The position numbers and the translations under genes are program-made. Shown one piece after another: positions 65 through 18,932 of a DNA stretch of 64,000 bases. The stretch's first letter is position 1. The number at the start of each line of letters is the position of its first letter. The notes below the pieces were generated by a model. It saw only the letters and a program-made list of their open reading frames with translations. It was not told the DNA's origin and did no database searches. Origin of the DNA: Flavobacteriales bacterium (lineage in GTDB: Bacteria > Bacteroidota > Bacteroidia > Flavobacteriales_F > PHOS-HE28); assembly GCA_016705955.1 (NCBI GenBank), contig JADJKO010000010.1, positions 6,280 through 70,279 of the forward strand, in the 5' to 3' direction.

Positions 65-1006
65 ATGCTCCAAGTAGAAGGCGTCAGCAAACGGTTCGGT
101 GACTTCACCGCGCTGGATGGCATCACCATGGACGTGCCGCCCGGACAGGTCTTCGGCTTGTTGGGCCCGAACGGTGCGGGCAAGACCACGTTGATCCGCA
201 TCATCACCCGCATCACCGGTCCGGATGAAGGACGCGTGTTGCTGGACGGCAAACCGATGCGCGATGCCGATGTGGCACGCATGGGCTACCTGCCGGAGGA
301 GCGTGGACTGTACAAGAAGATGAAGGTGGGCGAGCAGGCGCTCTACCTCGCGCGGTTGAAAGGACTCACGAAGGCGGACGCGACCAAACGCTTGAAGGCG
401 TGGTTCGAACGGTGGGGGATCGATGGCTGGTGGAACAAGAAGGTGGAGGAACTGAGCAAGGGCATGGCGCAGAAGGTGCAGTTCATCACCACGGTGCTGC
501 ATGAACCGAAGCTGATCATCCTCGATGAACCGTTCAGCGGCTTCGATCCCATCAACGCCGACCTGATCCGTACGGAGATCATCCGCCTGCGCAATGAGGG
601 CGTCACGGTGATGCTGAGCACGCACAGCATGCCGAGCGTGGAGGAGTTGTGCGACAACATCGGCCTCATCGACAAGGCGCGGCTGATGCTCCACGGCAAC
701 GTGAAGGAGATCCGGAAGCAGTACGCCACGAACACGTACCGGATCGAATACGACGGCAATCGCGTGGCGCTGGGCAACGCCCTCTCCTTCACCGGTGAAC
801 TCGTCGGCGCCGAGGACCGCGATGACCACCACATGGCCCGTGTGCGCATCGCGAAAGGATCCACGGTGAATGATGTGCTGCGCCAACTGTTGCCGACCGT
901 GGCGATCCATGGCGTACAAGAAGAAGTGCCCCGCATGCACGACATCTTCATCCGCGCGGTGAGCGAACACCAGCCGGAGAACTTGGTCGTTGGAATGACA
1001 GAGTGA
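65..1006 (+). CDS. ABC transporter ATP-binding protein
   Basis: 313-aa ORF with Walker A GPNGAGKTT, ABC signature LSKGMAQK and Walker B LIILDEP; followed directly by an ABC-2 permease gene. Confidence 0.85.
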   Translation: MLQVEGVSKRFGDFTALDGITMDVPPGQVFGLLGPNGAGKTTLIRIITRITGPDEGRVLLDGKPMRDADVARMGYLPEERGLYKKMKVGEQALYLARLKGLTKADATKRLKAWFERWGIDGWWNKKVEELSKGMAQKVQFITTVLHEPKLIILDEPFSGFDPINADLIRTEIIRLRNEGVTVMLSTHSMPSVEELCDNIGLIDKARLMLHGNVKEIRKQYATNTYRIEYDGNRVALGNALSFTGELVGAEDRDDHHMARVRIAKGSTVNDVLRQLLPTVAIHGVQEEVPRMHDIFIRAVSEHQPENLVVGMTE

Positions 1007-1034
1007 TGCACACACACCGGCCCGCCGCACGTTG

Positions 1035-1080
1035 CGCGTTACGTGTTGACGGGTTGCGGGTTGACCCAACACGTAACGCG
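1035..1080. repeat. Near-perfect palindromic intergenic hairpin (14-bp stem cgcgttacgtgttg / caacacgtaacgcg, 18-nt loop); second family member at 24646-24705
   Basis: Inverted repeat read directly in the sequence between the ABC ATPase stop and the permease start; shares the core gcgttacgtgttgacgggtt-cgggtt with the copy between cysD and cysN. Confidence 0.6.
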
Positions 1081-1106
1081 TAACCGCCCAACACGCAACC
1101 CCTCGC

Positions 1107-2429
1107 ATGAACAAGACCCGGCTCATCATCTGGCGCGAATTCACCACGCGTGTGCGCAAGCCCAGCTTCCTGATCATGACGATCCTGGGGCCGCTCCTCA
1201 TCGCCGGTGGCATCCTGGCCATGGCGTGGATCGGATCACAGGAAAGCACCAAGCACCAGGTGCTGGTGATCGACACCGAAGGCGTGATCGGTCGCCGGTT
1301 GGAGGACACCGACAAGGTGAGCTTCTTCATTGATGGCAACCAGTGGCCGGACCCGGTCTTCAAGGCCAGCCCGTACACCATCCGCATCAACCTGCTGCCG
1401 GACGTGTTGAACGACCCGAAGGCGGACCTCTACTACAAGACTGTTCCGAGCGAGTTCGTAATGAGCCACATCCGCAACCAGTTGGACAAGACCATTGAAT
1501 TGGCACGCTTGAAGAAGGAACAGATCGACCCGGAAGCGTTCGAGCGCATCCGCAAACCGGTGGATATCGACTCCTTCGACATCGAGAAGGTGGGCACGCA
1601 ATCGTATGCGCAGGAGCGCGCGATGATCGGCTTCTTCTTCGGCTACTTCATGTTCATCTTCATCTTCATGTACGGCGTGCAGGTGATGCGTGGCGTGATG
1701 GAGGAGAAGCAGAATCGCGTGGTGGAAGTGCTCATCAGCAGTGTGAAGCCGTTCCAGTTGATGATGGGCAAGATCATCGGGATCGCCCTCGTCGGCTTCA
1801 CGCAGTTCATCCTGTGGATCGTGATCACCGGCACGCTCACCGTGGTAGGCATGTCCGTACTCGGCGCCGACCGGTACGATCCATCCGAGCTCGCACAACA
1901 AGGGATGACCACCGAGGTACGCGACCAGCTCATCAAGCAACAGATGCCTGCCGCCGACTCCGGGTTCGACCAGGAGAAGGTCGCGGACATCATCAAACAG
2001 GTGAACATCCCGCTCGTGCTGGTCACCTTCCTCTTCTACTTCATCTGCGGGTACCTGTTGTACAGTTCACTCCTTGCCGCCATCGGCAGCGCGGTGGACA
2101 GCGAGACGGACACGCAACAGTTCATGTTCCCGGTCACCTTGCCCATGATCATCGCCATCATCGTGGCGCAGATCGCCGTGATGAACCCGGCAAGTCCTGC
2201 GGTGATCTGGTGCAGCTTCATCCCTTTCACCAGCCCGATCGTGATGATGGTGCGCGTGGCGATGGGCAGCGCGCCGCTCTGGCAATTGCTGCTCAGCATG
2301 GGCCTGCTGGTGATCACCTTCATCGGTACCACGTGGTTGGCTGGACGGATCTACCGCACAGGCATCCTCATGTACGGCAAGAAGATCAGCTGGAAGGAAC
2401 TGGGGAAGTGGTTGTTCTACAAAGGATAG
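1107..2429 (+). CDS. ABC-2 family transporter permease
   Basis: 440-aa ORF with an N-terminal TM helix, a large extracytoplasmic loop and a C-terminal cluster of hydrophobic helices, typical of ABC-2/NatB-like permeases; co-oriented with the upstream ATPase. Confidence 0.75.
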   Translation: MNKTRLIIWREFTTRVRKPSFLIMTILGPLLIAGGILAMAWIGSQESTKHQVLVIDTEGVIGRRLEDTDKVSFFIDGNQWPDPVFKASPYTIRINLLPDVLNDPKADLYYKTVPSEFVMSHIRNQLDKTIELARLKKEQIDPEAFERIRKPVDIDSFDIEKVGTQSYAQERAMIGFFFGYFMFIFIFMYGVQVMRGVMEEKQNRVVEVLISSVKPFQLMMGKIIGIALVGFTQFILWIVITGTLTVVGMSVLGADRYDPSELAQQGMTTEVRDQLIKQQMPAADSGFDQEKVADIIKQVNIPLVLVTFLFYFICGYLLYSSLLAAIGSAVDSETDTQQFMFPVTLPMIIAIIVAQIAVMNPASPAVIWCSFIPFTSPIVMMVRVAMGSAPLWQLLLSMGLLVITFIGTTWLAGRIYRTGILMYGKKISWKELGKWLFYKG

Positions 2430-2534
2430 AACGCTGCAGGCTGCACGCTTCACGCTCGATCGACCATGAGAGAACGATCACCTTCGACCGATCACGCGTG
2501 CAGCGTGCGGCGTCCCGCCTGAAGCGTACCCATC

Positions 2535-3446
2535 ATGCGCGAAGCCATCATCGATCTCGGCACGAACACTTTCAATTTATTGGTCTTCGAGCGCGGTGAT
2601 GCAGGCTTGAACGTCGTGCATAGTGCGGAGCTTCCTGTCTTCCTAGGGAAAGGCGGCATCGAGAACCGAAGAATCGCGGAGGATGCGTTCACGCGAGGGA
2701 TGGAAGCGTTGCGAACACACAAGGCCACAGCGCAAGAATACGGAGCAACGCACATGCGTGGTTTCGGAACCTCGGCGTTGCGGAGTGCGCGCAACGGCAA
2801 GGACTTCGTGGAACAGGTTCGGCGTGAATTGGACATCGCGATCACGGTGATCCCCGGTGAAGAGGAAGCCGACCTGATCCTTGCTGGCGTTCGGCAAGCG
2901 GTGCCCTTCGGCAAGCAGCCTTCGTTGGTGATGGACATCGGCGGCGGCAGCATCGAGTTCATCCTCGCCACCAACAGGGCGCTGATGTGGAAGCGCAGTT
3001 TCGAACTCGGCGTGACGCGTTTGCGCGAGCGGATCCCGATCAGCGATCCGATCACGGTGGACGAGGAAGCACGCATCGCGCAATACCTCGACAGTCAGTT
3101 GGAAGGGCTCTACGCCGTGGTGGAGCGCCAAGAGCCGCATGTCCTCGTGGGCAGCGCAGGCAGCTTCGATACGCTCGCGCACATCATCGCTGCGGATCGC
3201 GGCATCACCATCCCATCGGACACGAACAAGCTCGCGTTCACAGCACTCGAGTTCGACGCGCTGCGTGATCGCATTTTACGCTTGACCTGCAGTGAACGCT
3301 CACGTGTACCCGGCCTGCCGGAGCATCGCGTGGAGACCATCCCCTATGCCCTCATCGCCATCGAACGCGTCCTGATCGCGGGCGGCATCCGCGAACTGGC
3401 GTGGAGCCGGTATGCACTGAAGGAGGGCGCCGCGATGCGCTCGTAG
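2535..3446 (+). CDS. Ppx/GppA family phosphatase (exopolyphosphatase / pppGpp phosphohydrolase)
   Basis: 303-aa ORF; N-terminus IIDLGTNTFNLLV and later DIGGGSIEF match the ASKHA-fold Ppx/GppA motifs. Confidence 0.8.
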   Translation: MREAIIDLGTNTFNLLVFERGDAGLNVVHSAELPVFLGKGGIENRRIAEDAFTRGMEALRTHKATAQEYGATHMRGFGTSALRSARNGKDFVEQVRRELDIAITVIPGEEEADLILAGVRQAVPFGKQPSLVMDIGGGSIEFILATNRALMWKRSFELGVTRLRERIPISDPITVDEEARIAQYLDSQLEGLYAVVERQEPHVLVGSAGSFDTLAHIIAADRGITIPSDTNKLAFTALEFDALRDRILRLTCSERSRVPGLPEHRVETIPYALIAIERVLIAGGIRELAWSRYALKEGAAMRS

Positions 3447-3620
3447 CCGCAACGGCCGAACCGGTACCTTGGCGGAATGCCGCTGAAGCAGCACCACACT
3501 CTCATCCGGCAATTGCCGATCCCCTCCAGGATCGGGAAGGAGGAATCGCAGTACCGGCGTGCGAAGAAGCTCCACGCATTCCGAGTTGGCGCGCGACGGC
3601 GAGTGAAGGATGTGGCGTTC

Positions 3621-4442
3621 ATGACCGTGGGTGTGTTCAGCGCCGCGTTCGGGCTGGAGGGCTTCCTTTTGCCGAATGATTTCATCGATGGTGGCGCAAC
3701 GGGTATCGCACTGCTCGTTTCGAGCCTGACGGGCTGGCCGCTCTCCGCCTTGCTCGTGTTGATCAATGCCCCGTTCATCATCATCGCGTACCGGTCGATC
3801 AGTCGGGAGTTCGCGATCAAGACCATGGTCGCCATCCTCGGCTTGGCTGCGGTCACGGCCAGTGTGCCATTCCCGGATATGACCCATGATAAGTTGCTGG
3901 TGGCCATCTTCGGCGGCTTCTGTCTCGGCGCAGGTATCGGCCTCTCGGTGCGCGGTGGCAGCGTGATCGACGGGACGGAAGTGGTGGCACTGGCCGCCAG
4001 TCGCAAACTCGGCAGTACCATCGGTGATGTGATCATGGGGATCAACCTGATCATCTTCGGCGTAGCGGCATGGTTGCTCGGTGTGGAAACCGCCATGTAC
4101 GCCATGGTCACCTACCTCGCGGCAAGCAAGACGGTGGACTTCGTAGTGGAAGGCATCGAGGAGTACACGGGCATCACCATCATCAGCCCGCACCATGATG
4201 AAGTGCGCCGCATGATCACGCACGTCATGGGCCGTGGGCTCACGGTGTACACCGGTCGGCGCGGCTACGGCAAGGACACGCACAGCATCGAGACGGAGAT
4301 CATCTATTGTGTGATCACGCGCTTGGAGATCAGCAAGCTGCTCACCGAAGTGGAGAAGATCGACCCGAATGCCTTCGTGGTGATGAGCCCGGTGAAGGAC
4401 ACGCGCGGGGGAATGATCAAGAAGCGGCCGTTGGAGCACTAG
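3621..4442 (+). CDS. YitT family membrane protein (DUF161/DUF2179)
   Basis: Multi-TM protein with the YitT-like pattern and a C-terminal DUF2179-like soluble domain; start placed at an internal Met (3621), the ORF's 5' extension from 3477 looks non-coding. Confidence 0.7.
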   Translation: MTVGVFSAAFGLEGFLLPNDFIDGGATGIALLVSSLTGWPLSALLVLINAPFIIIAYRSISREFAIKTMVAILGLAAVTASVPFPDMTHDKLLVAIFGGFCLGAGIGLSVRGGSVIDGTEVVALAASRKLGSTIGDVIMGINLIIFGVAAWLLGVETAMYAMVTYLAASKTVDFVVEGIEEYTGITIISPHHDEVRRMITHVMGRGLTVYTGRRGYGKDTHSIETEIIYCVITRLEISKLLTEVEKIDPNAFVVMSPVKDTRGGMIKKRPLEH

Positions 4443-4519
4443 CTGCGGCCGGAACCCGCAATTGGTCGTTCATATCATCCGGGCGGATCTCACGCCGCAT
4501 CTTTGCCCATCCCCTACCC

Positions 4520-5695
4520 ATGGCCAACATCCTGATCATCGACGACGAGAAAGCGATCCGCGCGGCACTGCGCGACATCCTGGAGCACGAGAAGCACAAG
4601 GTGGAGGAGGCCGAGGACGGTGCTGCCGGATTGGACAAGGCGAAGAAGACCAAGTTCGACCTGGTGCTGTGCGACATCAAGATGCCCAGGATGGACGGCA
4701 TCGAGGTGCTGGAGAAACTACAGGCCCACGACCCCGACCTGCCCGTGGTAATGATCAGCGGACACGGCAACATCGACACCGCCGTGGACGCCTTGAAGAA
4801 GGGCGCCTTCGATTTCATCCAGAAACCACCGGACATCAATCGGATCCTGGTAAGCGTGCGCAACGCGCTGGACCGCGGCGACCTGGTGCAGGAGACCAAG
4901 GTGCTGCGCCAGAAGGTGGGCAAGTCCAAGGGCAACGGCGTGCAGATGATCGGCGAGAGCAAGTCGCTCGAAGCGATCCGCGAGATGATCGAGAAGGTGG
5001 CGCCGAGCGATGCGCGCGTGTTGATCACCGGCGGCAACGGAGCGGGCAAGGAAGGCGTGGCGCGGTTGATCCACCAGAAGAGCCAGCGCGCCAACGGACC
5101 CTACATCGAAGTGAACTGCGCGGCGATCCCCGGCGAACTGATCGAGAGCGAACTCTTCGGACACATGAAAGGCAGCTTCACCAGTGCGATCAAGGACCGC
5201 AAAGGCAAGTTCGAACTGGCCGATGGCGGGACGCTCTTCCTCGACGAGATCGGCGATATGGCATTGGCCGCGCAAGCGAAGGTGTTGCGCGCGTTGCAGG
5301 AAGGGCGCATCACTCCCGTGGGTGGCGACAAGGACGTGAGCGTGAACGTGCGCGTGATCGCCGCTACGAACAAGGACCTGAAGAAGGAGATCGCCGAGGG
5401 GCGCTTCCGCGAGGATCTCTTCCACCGCCTGAGCGTGATCCCGATCCACGTGCCCAGCCTGAGCGAGCGCTTGGATGATGTGCCTCTTCTGGCGGACCAT
5501 TTCATCGGACTGGTCTGCGCGGAGCAAGGCATTGCCCCGAAGAAGATCGCGGACAAAGCCGTGAAGGAATTGCAGAAGCTGCCTTGGACCGGGAACGTAC
5601 GTGAGTTGCGCAACGTGATCGAACGTCTGGTGATCCTCAGCGGCAAGGAGATCACGGATGCGGATGTGAAGACCTACGCCTCTCCGAAGGGCTGA
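4520..5695 (+). CDS. Sigma-54-dependent response regulator (receiver + AAA+ activator domain, no C-terminal HTH)
   Basis: MANILIIDDEKAIR receiver with phospho-acceptor region LVLCDIKMP; AAA+ domain with Walker A GGNGAGKE and the sigma-54 contact motif ESELFGHMKGSFTSA (GAFTGA variant); the ORF ends right after the AAA+ domain. Confidence 0.85.
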   Translation: MANILIIDDEKAIRAALRDILEHEKHKVEEAEDGAAGLDKAKKTKFDLVLCDIKMPRMDGIEVLEKLQAHDPDLPVVMISGHGNIDTAVDALKKGAFDFIQKPPDINRILVSVRNALDRGDLVQETKVLRQKVGKSKGNGVQMIGESKSLEAIREMIEKVAPSDARVLITGGNGAGKEGVARLIHQKSQRANGPYIEVNCAAIPGELIESELFGHMKGSFTSAIKDRKGKFELADGGTLFLDEIGDMALAAQAKVLRALQEGRITPVGGDKDVSVNVRVIAATNKDLKKEIAEGRFREDLFHRLSVIPIHVPSLSERLDDVPLLADHFIGLVCAEQGIAPKKIADKAVKELQKLPWTGNVRELRNVIERLVILSGKEITDADVKTYASPKG

Positions 5696-5823
5696 TCGCG
5701 GGCTCATCAGAGCCTTTTCCCGGTTCGGCCGATCGACCTTTCCATCTGGTCGAACCCACATGCGAATGGGGAAAGTTCCGCGTTGACACAGGCAACTGGG
5801 CCGGATTACGCGCGTCTCTTTGC

Positions 5824-6327
5824 ATGGAACCTCCTGCATTTCGGGCACTTATCGTCCCACCAATCCTGCACGTCATGGACTTCATCATGGGTATTCACAA
5901 GTACTTCTATACCACGCTGGGCATGGGTAGCGCGTTCTACTATGCCATCGGCTTCATCGCGGTCACTGCGCTAATGGCGCAGTGGCGGCTGTATGAGAAG
6001 TGCCGCTTGCCCGGTCTTGCGGCCTTCGTGCCGATCTGGAACATCAAGGTCTTCCTGCAGATCGTTGGTCGTCCGGCATGGCAGGGCTGGTTGTTCTTCG
6101 TCCCGGTCTGGGGCCAACTCTACTTCCTGCCCAAGGTCTGGATCGAGGTGGTGCAGTGCTTCGGCAAGAAGAGCATCATGGATTACGTGTTGGTACTCGC
6201 GCTCAACGGCCTGTATGTGATGAACCTGGCCTTCGGCGAGAGCGAACAATACCTCGGCCCGAAGTACAACGCGACCCCGCTGCCTCCGCCCACCAAACTG
6301 AAGGGTGCGCGCGCCCAGATGGCGTGA
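5824..6327 (+). CDS. Hypothetical small membrane protein (DUF5684-like)
   Basis: 167-aa ORF with 3-4 predicted TM helices; start uncertain (alternative Met at 5877). Confidence 0.45.
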   Translation: MEPPAFRALIVPPILHVMDFIMGIHKYFYTTLGMGSAFYYAIGFIAVTALMAQWRLYEKCRLPGLAAFVPIWNIKVFLQIVGRPAWQGWLFFVPVWGQLYFLPKVWIEVVQCFGKKSIMDYVLVLALNGLYVMNLAFGESEQYLGPKYNATPLPPPTKLKGARAQMA

Positions 6328-6336
6328 AGTATCTCC

Positions 6337-6382
6337 GGTTGCCACGAAGCCCCTCCTGAGCGGATCATGAGGGGCTTCGTCA
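6337..6382. terminator. Putative bidirectional terminator hairpin between convergent genes
   Basis: 10-bp stem gaagcccctc / gaggggcttc with a 13-nt loop between the 5824..6327(+) and 6528..7889(-) genes; no strong T-tract. Confidence 0.35.
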
Positions 6383-6527
6383 TTCCAGGTCTTGAAGGAA
6401 GGGACCCGACTTCTCGACGCTTTCCCTTGGCCGATCGGAGATCCGATCTCCAAGGAAGGATCAAGATCCCGAACTCATCCGAGCGGATCCTGTCATGCGC
6501 ACACGTTCCGGATCGATGTCCTTGACA

Positions 6528-7889
6528 TCATATGCAGGCTTCGTCCGCAATGCTGATCGCCTTACTGATGATCTCCATCCCCTCATCCACACCCGCCTCA
6601 TCGATGCACAGCGGCGGCGCGACGAAGATCCAGTTCCAGCGCACGAAGGTGAACATGCCCAGCTCGTTGATCCTGGCGGCCACCTTGTTCATCACGCCCA
6701 TCTCCTCGGGCTTCGCATTCCACGGTGCCATCGGTTCCTTGGTGTCGCGGTTCTTCACCAGTTCGATGCAACCCAGCAGGCCGGTGTTGCGGAAGTCGCC
6801 GATGCTCGGGTGCATCCTCGCGAGCGCAGCGACGCGATCCTCCACGTACTTGCCCATGCGCGCGGCGTTCTCCACCAGCTTCTCCTCCTCGTAGATGTCG
6901 ATCACCGCGTTGGCAGCGGCGCAGGCCACAGCGTGCGCGCTGTACGTGAGCCCGATCGGTAGCGGCTTGTCATCGAAGTGTTTGATGATCTCTTCGCGCA
7001 CGATGATGCCGCCGAGCGGAATGTAGCCGCTGGTGAGGCCCTTCGCCATGCACAGGATGTCCGGCACCACACCGTGGTGATCGATGCCGAACCATTTGCC
7101 GGTGCGACCGAAGCCGCTCATCACCTCATCGCAGATGGTGAGGATGCCGTACTTGTCGGCAATCGCCTTCACGCCCTTCCAGTAGCCCGGCGGGTACTTG
7201 ATGCAGCCGCTGCTGCCGCTCTCCCCTTCCATCATGATCGCCGCGACGTATTGCGGGCCTTCGTACTTCACCACGCGCTCAAGGTGCGCCAGCGCGTTCT
7301 CCGTGCATTCCTCCGGCGTCCTGCTGTTCCACGGACAGCGATAGAAGTACGGGTTCTCCACATGGATGATGTTCGGCACGCCTTGGCTGTCATGCGGCAG
7401 ACCGCGGGGATCACCACCCGCGCTGAGCGCGCCGTACGTAGCGCCGTGGTAGCTCTGGTACAGCGTGATGATCTTGTGGCGACCGGTGTACAGGCGCGCG
7501 AGCTTCATGGCGTGCTCCACCGCTTCGGTACCGCCGTTGGTGAAGAAGGTGCGGTTGAGCGAGCCGGGTGTGATCTCCGCCAGCTTCTTACCCAATTTGC
7601 CGCGCGCCTCGGTGATCATACCCGGATGCACGTAACTCACCTCGGCCATCTGCTTCGCCACGGCCTCCGCCACTTTCGGATGCCCATGCCCGATGTTCAC
7701 GTTCATCAACTGCGAACTGAAATCGAGAAAGCGCTTGCCGCTCCGCTCGTAGATGTGGATGCCTTTGGCCTTCTCGATGTTCAACGGGTTCAAGCCGCTC
7801 TGCTTGCTCCACGAAAAGATGGTGTGCTCGAGGTTGTCCTTGAGGATCTCGGCGGGGTTGGTCTTGGTGGTCGTGCTCATGGTGTGCAA
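6528..7889 (-). CDS. Class-III (omega) PLP-dependent aminotransferase
   Basis: 453-aa ORF with the aspartate aminotransferase family / class III pattern (NGGTEAVEHAMKLAR, CDEVMSGFGRTGKWF with the PLP-binding Lys context). Confidence 0.85.
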   Translation of the reverse strand: MHTMSTTTKTNPAEILKDNLEHTIFSWSKQSGLNPLNIEKAKGIHIYERSGKRFLDFSSQLMNVNIGHGHPKVAEAVAKQMAEVSYVHPGMITEARGKLGKKLAEITPGSLNRTFFTNGGTEAVEHAMKLARLYTGRHKIITLYQSYHGATYGALSAGGDPRGLPHDSQGVPNIIHVENPYFYRCPWNSRTPEECTENALAHLERVVKYEGPQYVAAIMMEGESGSSGCIKYPPGYWKGVKAIADKYGILTICDEVMSGFGRTGKWFGIDHHGVVPDILCMAKGLTSGYIPLGGIIVREEIIKHFDDKPLPIGLTYSAHAVACAAANAVIDIYEEEKLVENAARMGKYVEDRVAALARMHPSIGDFRNTGLLGCIELVKNRDTKEPMAPWNAKPEEMGVMNKVAARINELGMFTFVRWNWIFVAPPLCIDEAGVDEGMEIISKAISIADEACI

Positions 7890-10347: not shown

Positions 10348-10808
10348 GGCAGGTGCTCGTTGGAATTCAGTGTGTGCGTTGATGTGATCGCGGCTTGGAA
10401 CGTGGATATCCGATCGGAGGTTGCAGAAGATCAATGGGAAGGTGTGCCATGGGGATCTTCGGGTGTAGGAGAACAGGCTTCGGGTGCCCTAGCCGGGATG
10501 GCGGATGCAGGAACCGAACACGGCGGTGTGATGATCAAGGTATCATGCGCCGAACTTGAAGCTTGGGGTGCTGCGATGAACGGACCGGGTGTGGCAATGG
10601 AAGCTTCGGGTGCCTTTTTGAAGATCAGCGGGACGCGGATGACCGCACGCGACCGGTTATGCCCAGGTGCGAATGGTGAAACGCCTACTGGAGTGCAAAA
10701 AGCAGGCGCACGGTTCGCAGATCCGCGTGAGCGGGGGCCCGGCCCCGCGCCGGCCCCGCGCGGCGCCGCGGGCGGGGGGCGCCGGGGGGGCCGGGGGGGC
10801 CGCGGAAC

Positions 10809-11098: not shown

Positions 11099-12082
11099 TC
11101 AATACCCCCCGCCCCCGCCCTGCCCGCGTTCGATCGGGTGCCAGGTGGTTTTCACCTCTTGGGTATCGAGGATCATGTAGGGTGACTGCGCATCGGCGCT
11201 CATCCAGTCCTTCACCTTGGGAACTACCACACGCTTCATGTTCGTAGCAGCTTCGGTGTCGAGCATCGTCTTCTCCTCCTTGTCCTCGGCTCCGCTCGGA
11301 CTGACAGTCGGGGCAACGACGATCGCGTTGATGTCCATGTGCGACACGAGGGGCTTGAGCAATTCGCTGCGGAAGCCGGTGAGCAGGTTCACCACGCCGC
11401 CGGGCAGGTCGCTGGTGGCGAGCACTTCGGCGAAGGTGACGGCGGGTAAGGGATGCTTCTCACTGGCCACTACCACGGCTGTGTTGCCGCCTGTGATCAC
11501 AGGAGCGATCAAGCTCACCAGTTCCAGCAGGCCGTTGCTTCCGCCAGCCATTACGCCCACCACGCCGGTGGGTTCCTCCACGCTGAAGTTGAAGTGCGAA
11601 CTGTTGGTGGGGTTCACGCTGCTGAAGAGTGCTTGGTACTTGTCACACCAGCCGGCGTAGTGTATCCAGCGATCGATCGCTGCACTCACTTCTTCATTCG
11701 CTTGTTGCGCTGTTGATCCGTGTAGTACAAGCTCATGCACGAACTGTGCGCGGCGGCCTTCGAGCATCTCGCCGATGCGGTAGAGGATCTGCCCGCGGTT
11801 GAAGGCGCTGCGGTTGGCCCAATCGCCCAAGGCCTTGCGCGCGGCGATCACGCTCTCGCGGACATCCTTACGACTGCTGCGGCAGATGTTCGCCAGCGCT
11901 TTACCGTCCGTGCCTTTCGGCTGGTAGTAGCGGCCACTCTCCGTGCGCGGGAATTTGCCGCCGATGAAGATCTTGTAGGTCTTCATCACGGGAACGCGCT
12001 CCGCCTTCTTAGCGGTGCCGTTGGTGCCGTGGCCGTTGAGGTCGGCTTTGACAGCGGTCGTCTTCGTGATCGTCTTGCTCAT
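11099..12082 (-). CDS. Aldehyde dehydrogenase-like protein, N-terminal (NAD-binding) half only
   Basis: 327-aa product from an internal Met (MSKTITK...KTYKIFIGGKF...GGNTAVVVASEKHPLPAVTFAEVL...GGVVNLLTG) aligns to the ALDH N-terminal domain but lacks the catalytic Cys/ELGGK region; ends in GQGGGGGY, encoded by a C/G homopolymer tract. Confidence 0.55.
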   Translation of the reverse strand: MSKTITKTTAVKADLNGHGTNGTAKKAERVPVMKTYKIFIGGKFPRTESGRYYQPKGTDGKALANICRSSRKDVRESVIAARKALGDWANRSAFNRGQILYRIGEMLEGRRAQFVHELVLHGSTAQQANEEVSAAIDRWIHYAGWCDKYQALFSSVNPTNSSHFNFSVEEPTGVVGVMAGGSNGLLELVSLIAPVITGGNTAVVVASEKHPLPAVTFAEVLATSDLPGGVVNLLTGFRSELLKPLVSHMDINAIVVAPTVSPSGAEDKEEKTMLDTEAATNMKRVVVPKVKDWMSADAQSPYMILDTQEVKTTWHPIERGQGGGGGY

Positions 12083-13277: not shown

Positions 13278-13835
13278 ATGCGCCCCCTTCGCTTCTCCAT
13301 CAACGTCACCTTGGACGGATGCTACGACCATACCGTCGGGCTCGCGGACGAGGACCTGCACCGCAACGCGATGGAGTACATCGCCGGGTGCGACGCCTTG
13401 CTCTTCGGCCGGGTGACCTACGACATGATGTTGGCCGCGTGGCGCATGCCACCGAACGGGATATGGCCGGAGTGGATGCCACCGTGGATGCAGCCGTTCG
13501 CCAAGACCATCGATGCGGCCAGGAAGTACGTGGTGTCGAGCACGCTGAAGGAAGTGGATTGGAACGCGGAACTCGTGCGTGGAGATCTCGAGAAGACCGT
13601 TCAGCAACTCAAGCAGCAACCGGGCAAGGGCATCGGTGTGGGCGGCGTGCAACTCGCGATGGCCTTGACGGAATTGGGCCTGATCGATGAGTACCAGATC
13701 GTGGTACACCCGCGGATCGTGGGTCGCGGGCCAACCTTGTTCGCAGGACTATCGAAGATGGTGGACCTGAAGCTTGTGGGCCGACAGGAGTTCGGCTCGG
13801 GGGCGGTGGCGATGCGGTATGAAGTGAAGCGGTAG
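13278..13835 (+). CDS. Dihydrofolate reductase family protein (RibD C-terminal domain)
   Basis: 185-aa ORF; FSINVTLDG...LLFGRVTY...IVVHPRIVGRG pattern of YwjB/RibD_C proteins. Confidence 0.8.
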   Translation: MRPLRFSINVTLDGCYDHTVGLADEDLHRNAMEYIAGCDALLFGRVTYDMMLAAWRMPPNGIWPEWMPPWMQPFAKTIDAARKYVVSSTLKEVDWNAELVRGDLEKTVQQLKQQPGKGIGVGGVQLAMALTELGLIDEYQIVVHPRIVGRGPTLFAGLSKMVDLKLVGRQEFGSGAVAMRYEVKR

Positions 13836-13910: not shown

Positions 13911-14213
13911 ATGGAACTTAGCGAGTCTACACGGGAGCAACTGCGCCGCTTCTTCGCGGCGTATCCGGTGGACCGTGCCTACGTCTTTGGGTCATTCGCG
14001 CGTGGTGAGGCCAGGCCGGATAGCGACATGGACATCCTTGTGGACCTGGACCGATCCAAGCCCTTCGGATTGGGCTTTGTGCAAATGCAGCTCGACCTGG
14101 AGGAATTGCTCGGCCGCAAAGTGGACGTGGTGACCCGTAGTGCACTGAGCAAGTACATCGCGCCGTTCGTGACGAAGGACCTACAACTGATCTATGCGCG
14201 AGCGGCGGCGTGA
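13911..14213 (+). CDS. Nucleotidyltransferase antitoxin (MntA-like)
   Basis: 100 aa; GSFARGEARPDSDMDILVD minimal nucleotidyltransferase motif (GS...D.D); overlaps the downstream HepT gene by 20 nt. Confidence 0.8.
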   Translation: MELSESTREQLRRFFAAYPVDRAYVFGSFARGEARPDSDMDILVDLDRSKPFGLGFVQMQLDLEELLGRKVDVVTRSALSKYIAPFVTKDLQLIYARAAA

Positions 14214-14553
14214 CCGACTTCGCTTGCAACATATGCTCGATGCGTGTGATGCCCTGATCGAGTTCATGCGCGGCAAAAACGAGGATGACCTCGTGACGGA
14301 CAAGCTGCTCGTCTCGGGTGTTACACGACAGATCGAGATCATTGGAGAAGCCGCGAACATGCTCACCATCGAGCTACGGAATGAGCACCCCGATGTGCCG
14401 TGGAGACAGATCATTGGTATGCGCAACAACGTCATTCACGAATACTTCGCCGTGCAGACCGAAACCGTGTGGGACGTGGTGACGAACGATGTTCCCGTGC
14501 TGCGGGACCAGCTCGTCGCGATCATCGCCAAGTTGCCGGAAGCCGGTTTCTGA
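14194..14553 (+). CDS. HepT-like (DUF86) RNase toxin
   Basis: 119 aa; R(X)4HEY-type HEPN motif (MRNNVIHEYF); forms an MntA/HepT pair with 13911..14213. Confidence 0.8.
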   Translation: MRERRRDRLRLQHMLDACDALIEFMRGKNEDDLVTDKLLVSGVTRQIEIIGEAANMLTIELRNEHPDVPWRQIIGMRNNVIHEYFAVQTETVWDVVTNDVPVLRDQLVAIIAKLPEAGF

Positions 14554-14558
14554 ATGGC

Positions 14559-14962
14559 TCACGTCCTCAGGATCGACTCCATCTTCTTGCCCTTGGCCAG
14601 TTCATCCACCAACTTATCCAGGTAGCGGATCTGTTGCATCAGCGGGTCCTCGATGTCCTCTACGCGGTAGCCGCAGGACCTGTCCCGTGAAGCGGGATCA
14701 TACCCGTGATCCTGTTGACGTTCGGGTTCAATTCGGGTGCCTTGGCGAAGAAGGTCTCGAAGTCGATCTTCTTGTCGAGCACGTTCTGCAAGCCCTTCTC
14801 CGTGTAGCCCGTGAGCCAGTGGATGACGGTGTGCAGCTCTGCCTTCGTGCGGCCGTCATCCCGGCCACCGAGCCGGGACTTCTCCACCTTGGTAACGTAG
14901 TGCGGGTACACGCTTGCGAAGGCCATGCGATAGACCCTTTCGTTGTTCTCTCCTGGTTTCAT
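14559..14962 (-). pseudogene. DUF2200 family gene with an internal frameshift
   Basis: N-terminal part (MKPGENNERVYRMAFASVYPHYVTKVEK...HWLTGY...[24 protein letters not shown]) is in the frame of ORF 14660..14992; the conserved C-terminus ([37 protein letters not shown]) is in another frame ending at 14559; frame switch near 14676-14700. Confidence 0.6.
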
Positions 14963-15260: not shown

Positions 15261-15481
15261 TCATCCACGGCCTTGTTCGCGTCGCGTTCGGAAAGCGTGC
15301 GGCCCGCCTTGATATCCTTCTTACCCCTGTTGACGGAAGTCTGCTGCTCCTTTGTGAGCTTGTATGGCTCCAAGCCCGCAGCATCGGTGCCCATCAGCCG
15401 GTATGCCTCACGCAGCAACGCGCTATCGCGAGATCGCATGATGCGGTTGATCAGTCGCTTCTTGAGTTCCACTTCGGACAT
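15245..15481 (-). CDS. Putative antitoxin (addiction module component)
   Basis: 78-aa product from an internal Met (MSEVELKKRLINRIMRSRDSALLREAYRLM...); 16-nt overlap with the RelE/ParE toxin gene. Confidence 0.55.
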   Translation of the reverse strand: MSEVELKKRLINRIMRSRDSALLREAYRLMGTDAAGLEPYKLTKEQQTSVNRGKKDIKAGRTLSERDANKAVDEWLGK

Positions 15482-15646
15482 GGGACGCGGTTTGGTCTTG
15501 CTAAGGTATGGCGAGCGCGAAACCTTTCCCTCTGGTGCATTGCTGCGAACGCACCACTGGTCCGTGAGCCTGTTAGATGATGGCATCGTCCTGCTGGCCG
15601 TCCATCCGGTGCTGTTGGGTACGGGCAAGCGCCGCACACATTCGAG

Positions 15647-15728
15647 CTCATCAGCACGAAGGCATTCCCATCCGGCAGCATCTTCAATGCCTGCAAGGTC
15701 GCCGGGGCTTAAAAGGCGGGGTAGTTCG
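15647..15728. repeat. 82-bp direct repeat, copy 1 (about 88% identical to 17512-17593)
   Basis: ctcatcagcacgaaggcattcccatccggcaGcatcttcaatGcctGcaaggtcgCCggggcttAAaaggcggggtagttcg versus copy 2; the two copies bracket the ImmA/IrrE-DUF4411 cassette. Confidence 0.8.
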
Positions 15729-15734
15729 AGGATG

Positions 15735-16238
15735 CTACAGAGTACAGGTGAACTTGATACCCAACTCCTCGATCATCTTGAAGTCATCGATGCACCGAAC
15801 ACCCATTGCGTCACAGACATGCGGGATCTTCACTCGCTTGTTGTTCGCGGCTGTCGGTTTCTCCTCCTTGGACACGACGCAAGCGTTCTCGGCCATAGCA
15901 TGGGCGATCAGCCATGGATCCGCAAGTGATCGCTGCTTCGTGTTGTCCACAAGCAGCTGGTGCTTCGGGTCCTTCGCATAGATCTCTTTCAACTTGATGC
16001 CGACTTCCTCTGTAACACTCCGAACCTTGACGCGACTTTTCTTCAACCATTTCGACAAGTCGTCGTCGGTGCGATGGATCTCCTCGGCTACCCAACTCGG
16101 AACGAATAACTGACCGTGAGCGCCAAGCTCATCCAGGACATTCCAATAGGTAGGGCAAACGTTCGGTGAGTAGTAGCTCTCCCATGCTTTGATGAGCACG
16201 TTCGCATCGAGGCAGTATATGGTCGACTGCAAGCTCAT
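15735..16238 (-). CDS. DUF4411 family protein (PIN-like nuclease fold)
   Basis: 167 aa; MSLQSTIYCLDANVLIKAW...LVPSWVAEEI motif characteristic of DUF4411, usually found downstream of ImmA/IrrE genes; 4-nt overlap with the upstream gene. Confidence 0.8.
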   Translation of the reverse strand: MSLQSTIYCLDANVLIKAWESYYSPNVCPTYWNVLDELGAHGQLFVPSWVAEEIHRTDDDLSKWLKKSRVKVRSVTEEVGIKLKEIYAKDPKHQLLVDNTKQRSLADPWLIAHAMAENACVVSKEEKPTAANNKRVKIPHVCDAMGVRCIDDFKMIEELGIKFTCTL

Positions 16239-17416
16239 CGGTACATGATGGCCTCGAACTTCGAGAAGTTGTTCACCGGCGTGTTGAGCAGGCTACTCGC
16301 CAATGTGGGTTGGATCACACCTCCGCGAAAGGCATCCAGAACGACCTGGGTGAAGAGTCGCCCATTCTTGTTCAAGCGAAGCAGATAGGGATCCGGGCCG
16401 CCCTTGGACCGCTCCTTCTCCTTGTTCTTCTCCGACAATGCACGCAGGTATTCCTTGAAGTCCTTGTCCAAGGTCGCCTTCATGGAATGGTAGCCCGCGT
16501 CGGTGACGAGACCACGACCATGAGCGCGCACTAGCAAAGCCCACGAACTCACACCGGATCTCTCAGAGATCTGAGCGATCGATCTGGGATCCGAGAATTG
16601 AGAAGCGGTCAATGACGCCATCACCCGATCCGGCATCAGCGCATGAGCCGCAACCGCATTGCAGAAACGTTCGATGGGATCGGCGTTAGTAACGTTCGTT
16701 ACCTCTGGCTCGATCTCGCTTGAGATCCCGGTAGCCGCGATCCAGATATGTGCCAACTCATGCACTAGCGTGAACAGCTGCGCTTTGTCCCAATCCTCGG
16801 TATTGATGAAGACGAAAGGAGCGTGCGGGTCAGCGATGGCAAAGCCTTGGAACTCATCGCTGTCCAGTTTCAACCGTGTGTGAATGAAGCTCGTACGTGA
16901 AATGAAAATACCTGCGGCCTCCGCCTTGGTCATCCATTCGCGGATCGGCTCCTTCTCCTGGTAGGCTTCGGGATCAATGCCCAGCGTATAGAGGATGTCC
17001 TGCGCCACGGCGCTAGATTCATCGTTCGCCGTGTAGCGGCCAACGAACGGCAGGGCCGGTTCTTCGTTCTCGCGCTGCAATTCACTTATCCAACTATGCT
17101 TCTGTTGGATATCCCGAAGTATGAAGACCGCCGCAGTTGTCAACTCCTTGGAGCCGGAGCGACGGAAGTCGTTAAGCGGCGTGAAGTCATACGGAACATC
17201 AGGCAGGAACAGCATGGCGAACGGCCTGCGGTAAGCCTTCGCAAGCGTCTCCGCCTGTCTGATGGTCGGCTGTTCGGTTCCTTCCTCCCATTTAGCCAAA
17301 CGCTCAGGTGTAAGCCTCGTGACTTTCTTGGCCGCTTGCTCAAGAGTGAGGCGCGCTGTTTCGCGCGCCCACTTCAAGACCTTAGGAGTTATGTAGGCTT
17401 TCTCTGCCACTGGCAA
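16235..17416 (-). CDS. XRE-HTH / ImmA-IrrE family zinc metallopeptidase fusion
   Basis: 393 aa; N-terminal HTH (LKWARETARLTLEQAAKKV) and HEXXH zinc motif (LVHELAHIW) typical of ImmA/IrrE proteases. Confidence 0.85.
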   Translation of the reverse strand: MPVAEKAYITPKVLKWARETARLTLEQAAKKVTRLTPERLAKWEEGTEQPTIRQAETLAKAYRRPFAMLFLPDVPYDFTPLNDFRRSGSKELTTAAVFILRDIQQKHSWISELQRENEEPALPFVGRYTANDESSAVAQDILYTLGIDPEAYQEKEPIREWMTKAEAAGIFISRTSFIHTRLKLDSDEFQGFAIADPHAPFVFINTEDWDKAQLFTLVHELAHIWIAATGISSEIEPEVTNVTNADPIERFCNAVAAHALMPDRVMASLTASQFSDPRSIAQISERSGVSSWALLVRAHGRGLVTDAGYHSMKATLDKDFKEYLRALSEKNKEKERSKGGPDPYLLRLNKNGRLFTQVVLDAFRGGVIQPTLASSLLNTPVNNFSKFEAIMYR

Positions 17417-17511
17417 GGGAGCAAGGTGCTTCGCTACTGAACTAGATCGACGGGTTTCTTGGCTAGATTTTCGACAGCAAGGTATGATCGTCTTCTGAAC
17501 CGTTGTCGAGA

Positions 17512-17593
17512 CTCATCAGCACGAAGGCATTCCCATCCGGCATCATCTTCAATACCTACAAGGTCGTTGGGGCTTTGAAGGCGGGGTAGTTCG
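17512..17593. repeat. 82-bp direct repeat, copy 2
   Basis: See copy 1; lies just upstream (on the minus strand) of the ImmA/IrrE gene. Confidence 0.8.
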
Positions 17594-17696
17594 GCGAGTG
17601 GATTGGCAGTGAATACCGGAGCTCCGGACGGAAGAACCTTGCGTTGTACTTTGCGACTGCCGGTCCTGCACCCCTAACCGGACCTCAAAACAAGAA

Positions 17697-18143
17697 ATGT
17701 CTGTCGTGTTCTGCCTTGTCAAAGTCGCGTGTGCTTGGTTGGCAATGATGTTTATCGGAACCAACCTACTGGGCTTCATCGTGCGAGGCTTCTTGGAACA
17801 GGTGGTCCCGGCCGAACCTCCCGATGACGGCAGAGCCGTGAACACCTGGATCGCTCGTGAGCGCAAGAGGATGAAAGCGTCCAATCTCGTGATGACAGCA
17901 TTGGCCATTGGTGCCTGCGCTGGCTATTACTGGGCGCTCTTCCACTACCTCGGAGGTGCGCTTGCCGTGACCGCAGGAGCCATGCTTATGGTATCTCGGC
18001 TACCTGACCTGTTAGTCGAAATCAGGACCGGGAAGCCTACGACACGTAGATCCATGTCACAAACCCCACTCGACTTCTTCATGACGGCCCTGATTTGGGC
18101 GGCTCTACCAGTGATGTGGTTCGCCTTGTGTTATCAGAAATAA
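17697..18143 (+). CDS. Hypothetical membrane protein
   Basis: 148-aa ORF with 4 hydrophobic helices; no recognised domain. Confidence 0.4.
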   Translation: MSVVFCLVKVACAWLAMMFIGTNLLGFIVRGFLEQVVPAEPPDDGRAVNTWIARERKRMKASNLVMTALAIGACAGYYWALFHYLGGALAVTAGAMLMVSRLPDLLVEIRTGKPTTRRSMSQTPLDFFMTALIWAALPVMWFALCYQK

Positions 18144-18229: not shown

Positions 18230-18790
18230 TCAAGTCCAGGGCACCTTAACAGATCGTTCTCGACTTTGAACTAGCACGTTCAGCGTGGGGTGAATACGGT
18301 CGTACAAACCCTTGAATACATCAGGCCATTTCCCTCCTAGTTGGATGGATGTGACTTGCAAATCATGAGACTTCGGAACTGGATAGCGAAATTCTGTCTC
18401 CATCATCCGTTGGACTTGATCACAGAAAATGTCTTCGTTCTGACTAAGGGAGATTTTCGCCATACGGGCCAACTTCTTCAACTGGTGCGTTTGAATCTTT
18501 CGTGCTAAGGCACCATTCGAAATGAGCGTTTTATCCTCGAGGATAATCTTGCCCTTGAACAGACATTCAACGCTGTAACCAAGCAGCGCACCGTAAATGT
18601 GAAGCGTAGAAACCATTGAGCGCGTATCGTCGGTTGCCTCTCCCCGAACACGCTTCATTAAATCCTCCAGCTGCCGTTCGCATTCTGGCCAAAGCAACTT
18701 TGCGGCATGGCGGAGATCGGAAGCTTTGCGTCCCCAGAAGTAAGGGCTGGCTTCCATTCTGAAATACTGATGCTCCTTTGGTTCAGGCAT
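18230..18790 (-). CDS. Hypothetical protein (island-encoded)
   Basis: About 186 aa from an internal Met (MPEPKEHQYFRMEASPYFWGR...); no recognised family. Confidence 0.4.
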   Translation of the reverse strand: MPEPKEHQYFRMEASPYFWGRKASDLRHAAKLLWPECERQLEDLMKRVRGEATDDTRSMVSTLHIYGALLGYSVECLFKGKIILEDKTLISNGALARKIQTHQLKKLARMAKISLSQNEDIFCDQVQRMMETEFRYPVPKSHDLQVTSIQLGGKWPDVFKGLYDRIHPTLNVLVQSRERSVKVPWT

Positions 18791-18932
18791 TTCGCGTGAG
18801 CGATTGAAGCGGAAACCCCGCAAGCCCGGTAATCCGGGCGCGGAGTTGCAGCGGAAAGCGCGACCCGGCTGCATTTGAGCCGGGGCACGCCCACATCTCG
18901 ACTACGCTCGATGTGACAACGCTCCGCATCCC

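Follow-up and report, generated by a model that had tools for sequence, protein, structure and literature searches.

Two 82-nucleotide (nt) direct repeats in a 64,000-nt stretch of the Flavobacteriales bacterium contig JADJKO010000010.1 (assembly GCA_016705955.1; hereafter the window) bracket exactly a two-gene operon, in which a gene for a helix-turn-helix (HTH) domain fused to an M78 (ImmA/IrrE) peptidase is followed by a DUF4411 gene. We propose that these repeats are orphaned gene-end fragments that mark recombination joints in a hypervariable island of toxin-antitoxin (TA) and defence genes, around a cassette of a known type, and we give this reading a probability of about 60%. Each copy is recognisable, from its sequence, as the last 25 codons, the stop codon and a few further bases of a plus-strand gene of the RibD_C family (dihydrofolate-reductase-like), and the gene with this ending is now dead in this Flavobacteriales lineage. 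A recombinational origin suggests itself because the layout runs from gene body through gene end and insert to orphan end, because the arrangement is found in tandem in a relative, and because it is common to three different gene ends.

A repeat search placed the copies at 15647-15728 (copy 1) and 17512-17593 (copy 2), with 1865 nt from start to start. The initial annotation, made from the letters of the window, had located both correctly and put their identity at about 88%; an ungapped comparison gives 75 identical positions out of 82, or 91.5%. If a single 1-nt indel is allowed, the homology reaches from 15642 to 15728 and, in copy 2, from 17506 to 17593 (88 columns, 90.9%). All seven mismatches fall within positions 31-66, the copies agreeing fully over 30 nt at the start and 16 nt at the end, and the edges of the 82-mer are sharp on both sides. 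Its opening 31 nt and its closing 16 nt were each found at exactly two places across the 64 kb, against approximately none expected from shuffled sequences, and the 82-mer as a whole is present only twice in the window. The bracketing is as exact as had been claimed: 6 nt separate copy 1 from the DUF4411 stop codon (15735), and on the far side the distance upstream from the HTH-M78 start (TTG at 17416; 17410 according to gene callers) to copy 2 is 96 nt. The initial annotation had put each copy immediately upstream of a TA-like operon; the distances are those 96 nt for the HTH-M78 gene and 166 nt from copy 1 to the start (15481) of the 78-residue antitoxin of a neighbouring ParE-family pair. 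Both copies are found in all other assemblies of the same strain or species that reach the region (L001-L005 and L041-L043; L numbers designate the loci compared with the window). Source names attached to identical and near-identical proteins indicate a Flavobacteriales metagenome-assembled genome from wastewater.

The two copies are of unequal standing. Copy 1 continues upstream into the remains of a gene, in which a frameshifting deletion of some 22 nt lies ahead of ..TFE; matches to the DNA of intact genes begin at 15587/15588, and alignment to the L015 protein gives 35 identities in 57 residues (E 6e-19). Because only copy 1 is continued in this way, we take copy 1 to close off a decayed gene body and copy 2 to be an orphaned end. 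Copy 1 carries a premature TAA at 15710-15712, ahead of the original TAG at 15722-15724. Copy 2 is the least decayed of all copies and the nearest to the intact genes of other taxa, with 21 of its 25 amino acids identical to residues 170-194, the C-terminus, of the 194-residue L015 protein (E 1e-12). Copy 1 was also considered as a different functional allele; only three of the seven positions at which it differs from copy 2 match states that occur in intact genes.

Translated fragments of 32-66 residues gave no Pfam match at E <=10, being too short or filtered out, and the family was therefore identified through intact homologues. Twelve homologous genes, nine of them complete (about 195 residues) and three interrupted or frameshifted, end in ..FEL(I/V/A)ST(K/N)A(F/L)PSG(I/V)IFN.Y.. 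and then stop; of this conserved ending, 11 codons at the start were fixed by the codon-wobble pattern with which genomes and metagenomes were searched. The 193-residue L011 protein matches PF01872 (RibD_C) in its C-terminal part, over residues 114-180, with 37.3 bits against a cut-off of 24.1. Among genome contigs, the wobble-tolerant pattern found a single genome, a Burkholderiales metagenome-assembled genome with an intact gene; among metagenome contigs it found 14 loci, of which only those of the source strain and L024 carry the fragment form. The window itself holds an intact RibD_C paralogue (13278-13835), which was considered as the source of the repeat and rejected because its 3' end differs.

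Comparison with other genomes separates the cassette from its surroundings. Homologues of the cassette at 83% nucleotide identity lie in a quite different locus in L033-L035 (88% protein identity) and in an island of the same type in L036 (86%), and a more distant one is found in L037 (69% of nucleotides). They match the window from 15733 to 17491 (L036: 15733-17485), which is exactly the DNA between the copies; cassette homology to other contexts stops near 17491-17500, short of copy 2, and the 82-bp repeat is absent around the homologues in L033-L037. Three further loci, L024, L038 and L039, whose aldehyde dehydrogenase gene is 89-92% identical to that of the window in nucleotide sequence, hold a different ImmA/DUF4411 pair (26% and 29% protein identity) at the same position between the same repeats, and relatives of this second cassette occur in L040 and L048, also without the repeat. 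Because cassette homologues lack the repeat and a relative holds a different cassette between the same repeats, the repeat is, judged from these alignments, a property of the site and not of the cassette. In L038 the array runs from the right copy through the ImmA/DUF4411 pair, a middle copy, a frameshifted Bro-N gene and a third, partial copy to DUF2200. L026 has one decayed copy with a longer gene remnant, which abuts a Fic gene and has different flanks. The region downstream of the aldehyde dehydrogenase gene is hypervariable, with quite different contents in six related genomes, mostly TA and defence genes.

The cassette itself is predicted to be of a known kind, a self-contained RosmerTA-type TA pair. 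The HTH-M78 protein (393 residues from 17416, 391 from 17410) has the RmrA model PDLC03949 as its best PADLOC match (E 1.1e-17), and 14 of its 18 PADLOC matches are to RmrA models; the DUF4411 gene begins within the stop of the fusion gene, with a 4-nt overlap (ATGA), and its product gives a weak PIN match and no match to a PADLOC model. RmrA is the protease-domain antitoxin of RosmerTA defence systems, for which PIN-like partners have been described (PMC10440598). DUF4411 genes downstream of HTH-DUF955 fusions have also been described, as the architecture of DUF4411.1 (PMC5499597). The present pair resembles these modules both in its N-terminal HTH fused to an M78/ImmA peptidase, matching RmrA profiles, and in the overlapping gene for a PIN-like DUF4411 protein that comes next, as in DUF4411.1. 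It differs in that toxicity, neutralisation and phage defence are here only predicted from the genes. Upstream of the operon lies a block (17442-17489) which its homologues in four other contexts keep, while they do not keep the repeat; the sequence common to all four reads ..ATACCTTGCTGTCGA(A/T)AA.. ..CGTCGATC.. and makes the block an obvious, if putative, place for the promoter and operator of the cassette. The features of the region are listed in Table 1.

Table 1. Repeats, cassette and neighbouring features of the island, in window coordinates
Feature	Position	Strand	Remarks
Intact RibD_C paralogue, 185 aa	13278-13835	+	PF01872, E 1e-16
DUF2200 gene, near-complete, disrupted	14559-14962	-	20-nt hairpin insertion (frameshift) and 21-nt in-frame hairpin insertion
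ParE/RelE-superfamily toxin, 97 aa	14967-15260	-	PF05016, E 3.6e-8
Antitoxin of the ParE-family pair, 78 aa	15245-15481	-	Unit common with L030 ends at 15511
Upstream pseudogene remnant	15588-15646	+	..DGIVLLAVHPVLLGTGKR; contiguous with copy 1 only
Repeat copy 1	15647-15728	+	25 codons, stop and 4 nt of the dead RibD_C-family gene; reads LISTKAFPSGSIFNACKVAGA then stop
DUF4411 (PIN-like) putative toxin, 167 aa	15735-16238	-	PF14367, E 4.6e-44
HTH (Xre) and M78/ImmA-IrrE peptidase fusion, RmrA-like antitoxin/regulator	16235-17416	-	PF06114, PF01381
Putative control block of the cassette	17442-17489	-	Minus strand GATCATACCTTGCTGTCGAAAAT..CGTCGATCTAG; conserved in 4 of 4 cassette-family contexts
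Repeat copy 2	17512-17593	+	Orphan 3' fragment of the same gene family; reads LISTKAFPSGIIFNTYKVVGALKAG then stop; TAG 17587-17589
Decayed DUF2200 5' fragment	17594-17650	-	Joined directly to the end of copy 2; from alignment and matches in L024, L040, L048 and L030

The end of the dead gene (RibD_C') is one of several gene ends that recur in these islands. A second is formed by the first 40-55 nt or so (CCATGCCCCGCCTCATCGTCCACGG.., MPRLIVHGFTISLDGY) of another RibD_C paralogue (RibD_C''), which is intact in L036 (215 residues). In L036 this 5' end stands as a 55-nt direct repeat of 91% identity (2217-2271 and 2698-2752) around a gene for 125 residues; it also lies at cassette boundaries in L024 (356-398 and 2134-2174) and in L030 (about 14210-14254), and it occurs three times in L040 (11678-11717, 13787-13826 and 14758-14797). 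This sequence had been considered as an element 'X', the native downstream flank of the RibD_C gene, which was rejected once it was recognised as the 5' end of the other paralogue. The third is the 5' end of DUF2200, fragments of which lie beside copy 2 (about 17594-17650) and upstream of the ImmA gene in L040 and L048; the full gene is found further along.

We hypothesize that the present arrangement arose when cassette DNA entered by recombination at the end of the RibD_C gene, either next to that end or within it, in the variable island that follows the aldehyde dehydrogenase gene. On one side homology in the RibD_C gene would have served as the anchor; the other junction would have fallen inside the resident gene end, so that this end was displaced and kept as an orphan. 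From then on the repeats may have acted as passive homology, permitting RecA-dependent loss or excision of the cassette, or its swapping between strains. Two 82-bp repeats with a perfect stretch of 30 nt could offer usable homology for such deletion, excision or replacement.

Several observations weigh against this proposal, and the conservation of copy 2 is prominent among them. It is identical at 76 of 76 positions to the right-hand copy of L038 and L024, where fourfold-degenerate sites of the adjacent aldehyde dehydrogenase gene are 89.3% identical; the probability of such a match is then 0.893^76 = 2e-4, or 3e-3 under a coding constraint like that of the dehydrogenase. The approximately 57 nt that follow copy 2 are about 72% identical to L038/L024. 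A purely neutral scar would be expected to have diverged, whereas every one of 76 positions matches where neutral sites differ by about 11%. The identity could possibly have come from conversion during swaps, from a conserved master copy elsewhere in the genome, or from selection. The copies also form a star, the others each being closer to copy 2 than to one another. Moreover, the 5' ends of independent copies cluster within about 20 nt, and a 19-nt palindrome in L026 lies exactly at GAG^CTC, the left edge of the repeat; such clustered truncation points could indicate a preferred break or crossover site. Both junctions of the cassette leave very little spare sequence: 2-6 nt past the stop codon on one side and some 10-20 nt outside the control block on the other. 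Homology-facilitated illegitimate recombination usually yields deletions rather than duplications. Finally, the initial annotation had suggested looking for a site with one copy and no cassette; exact-protein look-ups of DUF4411 and ParE found none among the strain's own contigs, all of which, where long enough, hold the cassette and both copies. With neither an empty site nor a circular form found, there is no direct evidence of movement. Because the right-hand copy is 76/76 identical, least decayed and at the centre of the star, it is conceivable, though we think it unlikely, that the three gene-end fragments (RibD_C' 3', RibD_C'' 5' and DUF2200 5') are maintained recombination joints of a system for exchanging TA and defence cassettes, independent of an integrase or served by a recombinase acting in trans, with the right-hand 82-mer held constant as a landing pad.

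The layout also recalls an attachment (att) site. If the copies were the attL and attR of a small integrative cassette, inserted into the RibD_C 3' end by a recombinase encoded elsewhere, the incoming DNA would have brought a substitute gene end (the left copy) and displaced the native one (the right copy). Direct repeats do flank the insert, the left one continuous with the target gene body and the right one an orphan; their match is core-like, with 30 perfect nt at the start and about 86% identity in the remainder; left copies vary (84% between copy 1 and the middle copy of L038) and right copies are identical; the three-copy tandem array in L038 is what repeated integration predicts; and junctions cluster at GAG^CTC. 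However, the cassette holds only its ImmA-like and DUF4411 genes, and the recombinase that one would expect in or beside such an element was not found: no integrase or transposase domain was detected in the window open reading frames of >=220 residues that were scanned, nor among Pfam-annotated genes from about 2.2 to 22.7 kb, the stretches between being unscanned, and no recombinase is present in the 20-kb neighbourhoods of L026 and L038. A tRNA scan of the window found no gene, which leaves no place for a tRNA-type att site. The same cassette families occur without the repeat (L033-L037, L040, L048), even in the same type of island (L036, L040, L048), and no unoccupied site came to light. 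Two unrelated gene ends, RibD_C'' 5' and DUF2200 5', behave alike, so that several specificities would be needed; the junction positions vary (-88, -82, -76, -65 and -32); and two patterns searched for in viral contigs gave no match. On balance we find attachment sites a doubtful explanation. The suggestion in the initial annotation of a scar left by site-specific insertion or duplication thus survives in part: the gene-body copy, the orphan copy and the other cassette in a relative agree with a scar, while the missing recombinase and the similar behaviour of other gene ends speak against site specificity. The duplication could instead have happened in place: a tandem duplication of local extent, or a template switch during replication, would have copied about 88 nt of the gene end and brought in or kept the cassette, which homologous recombination replaced later. 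This needs no machinery and agrees with the sharpness of both repeat edges, with the star centred on copy 2 and with the private changes of copy 1 (AGC, TGC, TAA), which resemble decay of a copy of copy 2. We nevertheless consider it improbable, as a different cassette between the same repeats calls for further events, the identity of right-hand copies across lineages goes unexplained, and the middle and third copies of L038 share '..ALKTG' where the right copy has '..ALKAG', which suggests different source alleles.

Two further explanations would make the 82-mer a functional element. The initial annotation offered, as one of its alternatives, a duplicated promoter/operator module shared by the two minus-strand TA operons. 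The position of the copies upstream of the HTH-M78 gene and of the ParE antitoxin is what speaks for this, and the conservation of copy 2 would fit some function. The sequence, however, is derived from coding DNA on the opposite strand and travels with neither operon: the cassette homologues keep another upstream block and no repeat, the ImmA proteins behind identical right-hand copies are only 26% identical, and the orthologous ParE operon of L030 has no repeat and shares only 30 nt upstream of the antitoxin. Neither copy contains sigma-70-like promoter hexamers or a palindrome or inverted repeat that could supply the operator half-sites which had been anticipated, a terminator scan found nothing in the repeats, and the Bacteroidota-type motif TAnnTTTG is absent from the whole of 15400-17750. 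A role of the repeats as promoter or operator of either TA operon is thus not supported and, in our estimate, very improbable. Integron-type attC sites, or other hairpin recombination sites in an array that has no integrase, come to mind because the island is built of small independent cassettes, TA pairs included, and because the repeats separate successive cassettes in L038. We can give this hardly any credence: single-strand folding of both copies on both strands is no different from that of shuffled sequences (z -0.26 to +0.92), no RYYYAAC/GTTRRRY core site matches in either copy, no intI-like recombinase is found among the open reading frames scanned, the repeat is missing at most cassette boundaries of the window, and cassette orientations are mixed. 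Nor does anything attC-like travel with the cassette, since no sequence after the DUF4411 stop is conserved between contexts.

The proposed displacement of a gene end has known counterparts. For the orphaned 3' regions of rhs and contact-dependent inhibition (CDI) loci and for displaced gene remnants in the effector-immunity arrays of the Vibrio type VI secretion system (T6SS), sequential displacement through one-sided homologous plus illegitimate (homology-facilitated) recombination has been proposed (PMC5361080). As in those loci, a conserved gene would here have given incoming DNA the homology that served as its anchor, the end of the resident gene would have been retained further downstream, and repeated events, with no dedicated recombinase involved, would have built arrays in which orphan ends alternate with small genes of immunity or TA-like type. 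There, however, the variable part is the toxin 3' end itself together with its immunity gene, whereas here the duplicated end belongs to a conserved, unrelated gene of housekeeping type (RibD_C), the cargo is a complete TA operon placed after the gene end, and the anchor gene is dead.

Prophage insertion offers another comparison. At icd in Escherichia coli, phage 21 and e14 carry in a substitute gene end that displaces the native one, leaving two direct repeats of the last 80-165 bp or so of the gene that are about 90% alike. The gene is completed by one repeat, and the other remains on the distal side of the insert as a pseudo-fragment, much as in the window. At icd the insert is a prophage that encodes an integrase of its own beside the att site; the insert here is a 1.8-kb TA cassette that has no recombinase and belongs to a family also found without the repeat. 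Integron cassettes are likewise small, include TA pairs and are separated by repeats of about 60-140 bp, but the present repeats lack hairpin, core sites and integrase, do not accompany the cassette, and are recognisable as a gene fragment.

Other parts of the locus have their own histories of insertion. In the window, an MNT/HepT TA pair (nucleotidyltransferase and HEPN; 13911-14553) lies between the 3' ends of the 185-residue RibD_C gene and DUF2200. These two genes adjoin in L040, and the pair looks like another cassette insertion, in this case without flanking repeats. The DUF2200 gene is interrupted by CCCGCTTCACGGGACAGGTC, the 20-nt insert that shifts its frame, and by TCCCGGCTCGGTGGCCGGGAT, the 21-nt insert that preserves it; the L038 gene (12874-13275) has the first hairpin insert and an inverted second copy. 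The palindrome inserted at the left edge of the 82-mer in L026 (19030-19048) is CCTGCCTGCGGTAGGCAGG. Such hairpin-forming insertions of 19-21 nt inside genes may represent a family of miniature palindromic insertions. In L039, positions 3346-3601, which correspond to the left end of L024 (1-66), are taken up by a tandem array in which a 22-nt unit (CCATCATGTAGGGCTACTTGGC) occurs 12 times or more; this array adjoins the left repeat copy, and a DUF2200 fragment comes next.

On the other side of the dehydrogenase gene, L038 carries a complete Wadjet system (JetABCD) and a RES-Xre pair just upstream (755-7476), and in L026 the same gene is followed directly by a cobalamin riboswitch (11498-11689) and then a TonB-dependent receptor cluster. 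These contents show how freely the locus gets rebuilt. An Rfam scan returned nothing in or near the repeats; its sole match was the Flavo-1 RNA motif (RF01705) at 18789-18869 on the plus strand, with 42.8 bits against a gathering score of 42. This match lies just downstream of the aldehyde dehydrogenase gene, overlaps the called start of an open reading frame of 214 residues, and sits on the border of the variable island, at the very point (18787) from which related genomes are homologous again. Elsewhere in the window, a 66-nt run at 10738-10803 consists purely of G and C (GGGCCCGGCCCCGCGCCGGCCCC...GGGGGGGCCGCGG) and has no counterpart in any of the four further assemblies of this strain that span the position, although their sequence to either side agrees at 99.5-100%. 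An artefact of assembly or sequence could account for it, as could a strain-specific insertion within an open reading frame.

The identification of the 82-mer as a gene end removes the tempting reading of these repeats as a shared TA promoter or as a novel repeat element. We regard the finding as one more example of a type of genome scar already known, and of modest interest as such. It provides a concrete case of the shuffling of TA and defence cassettes in Bacteroidota chromosomes, in which cassettes that carry their own control region move as units and short orphaned ends of neighbouring genes mark the joints. These ends may, in turn, supply the homology on which a later exchange relies. 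Should selection turn out to lie behind the conservation of the right-hand copy, this would point to a landing site for cassettes that has no linked integrase, which would matter more widely for understanding the assembly of defence islands.

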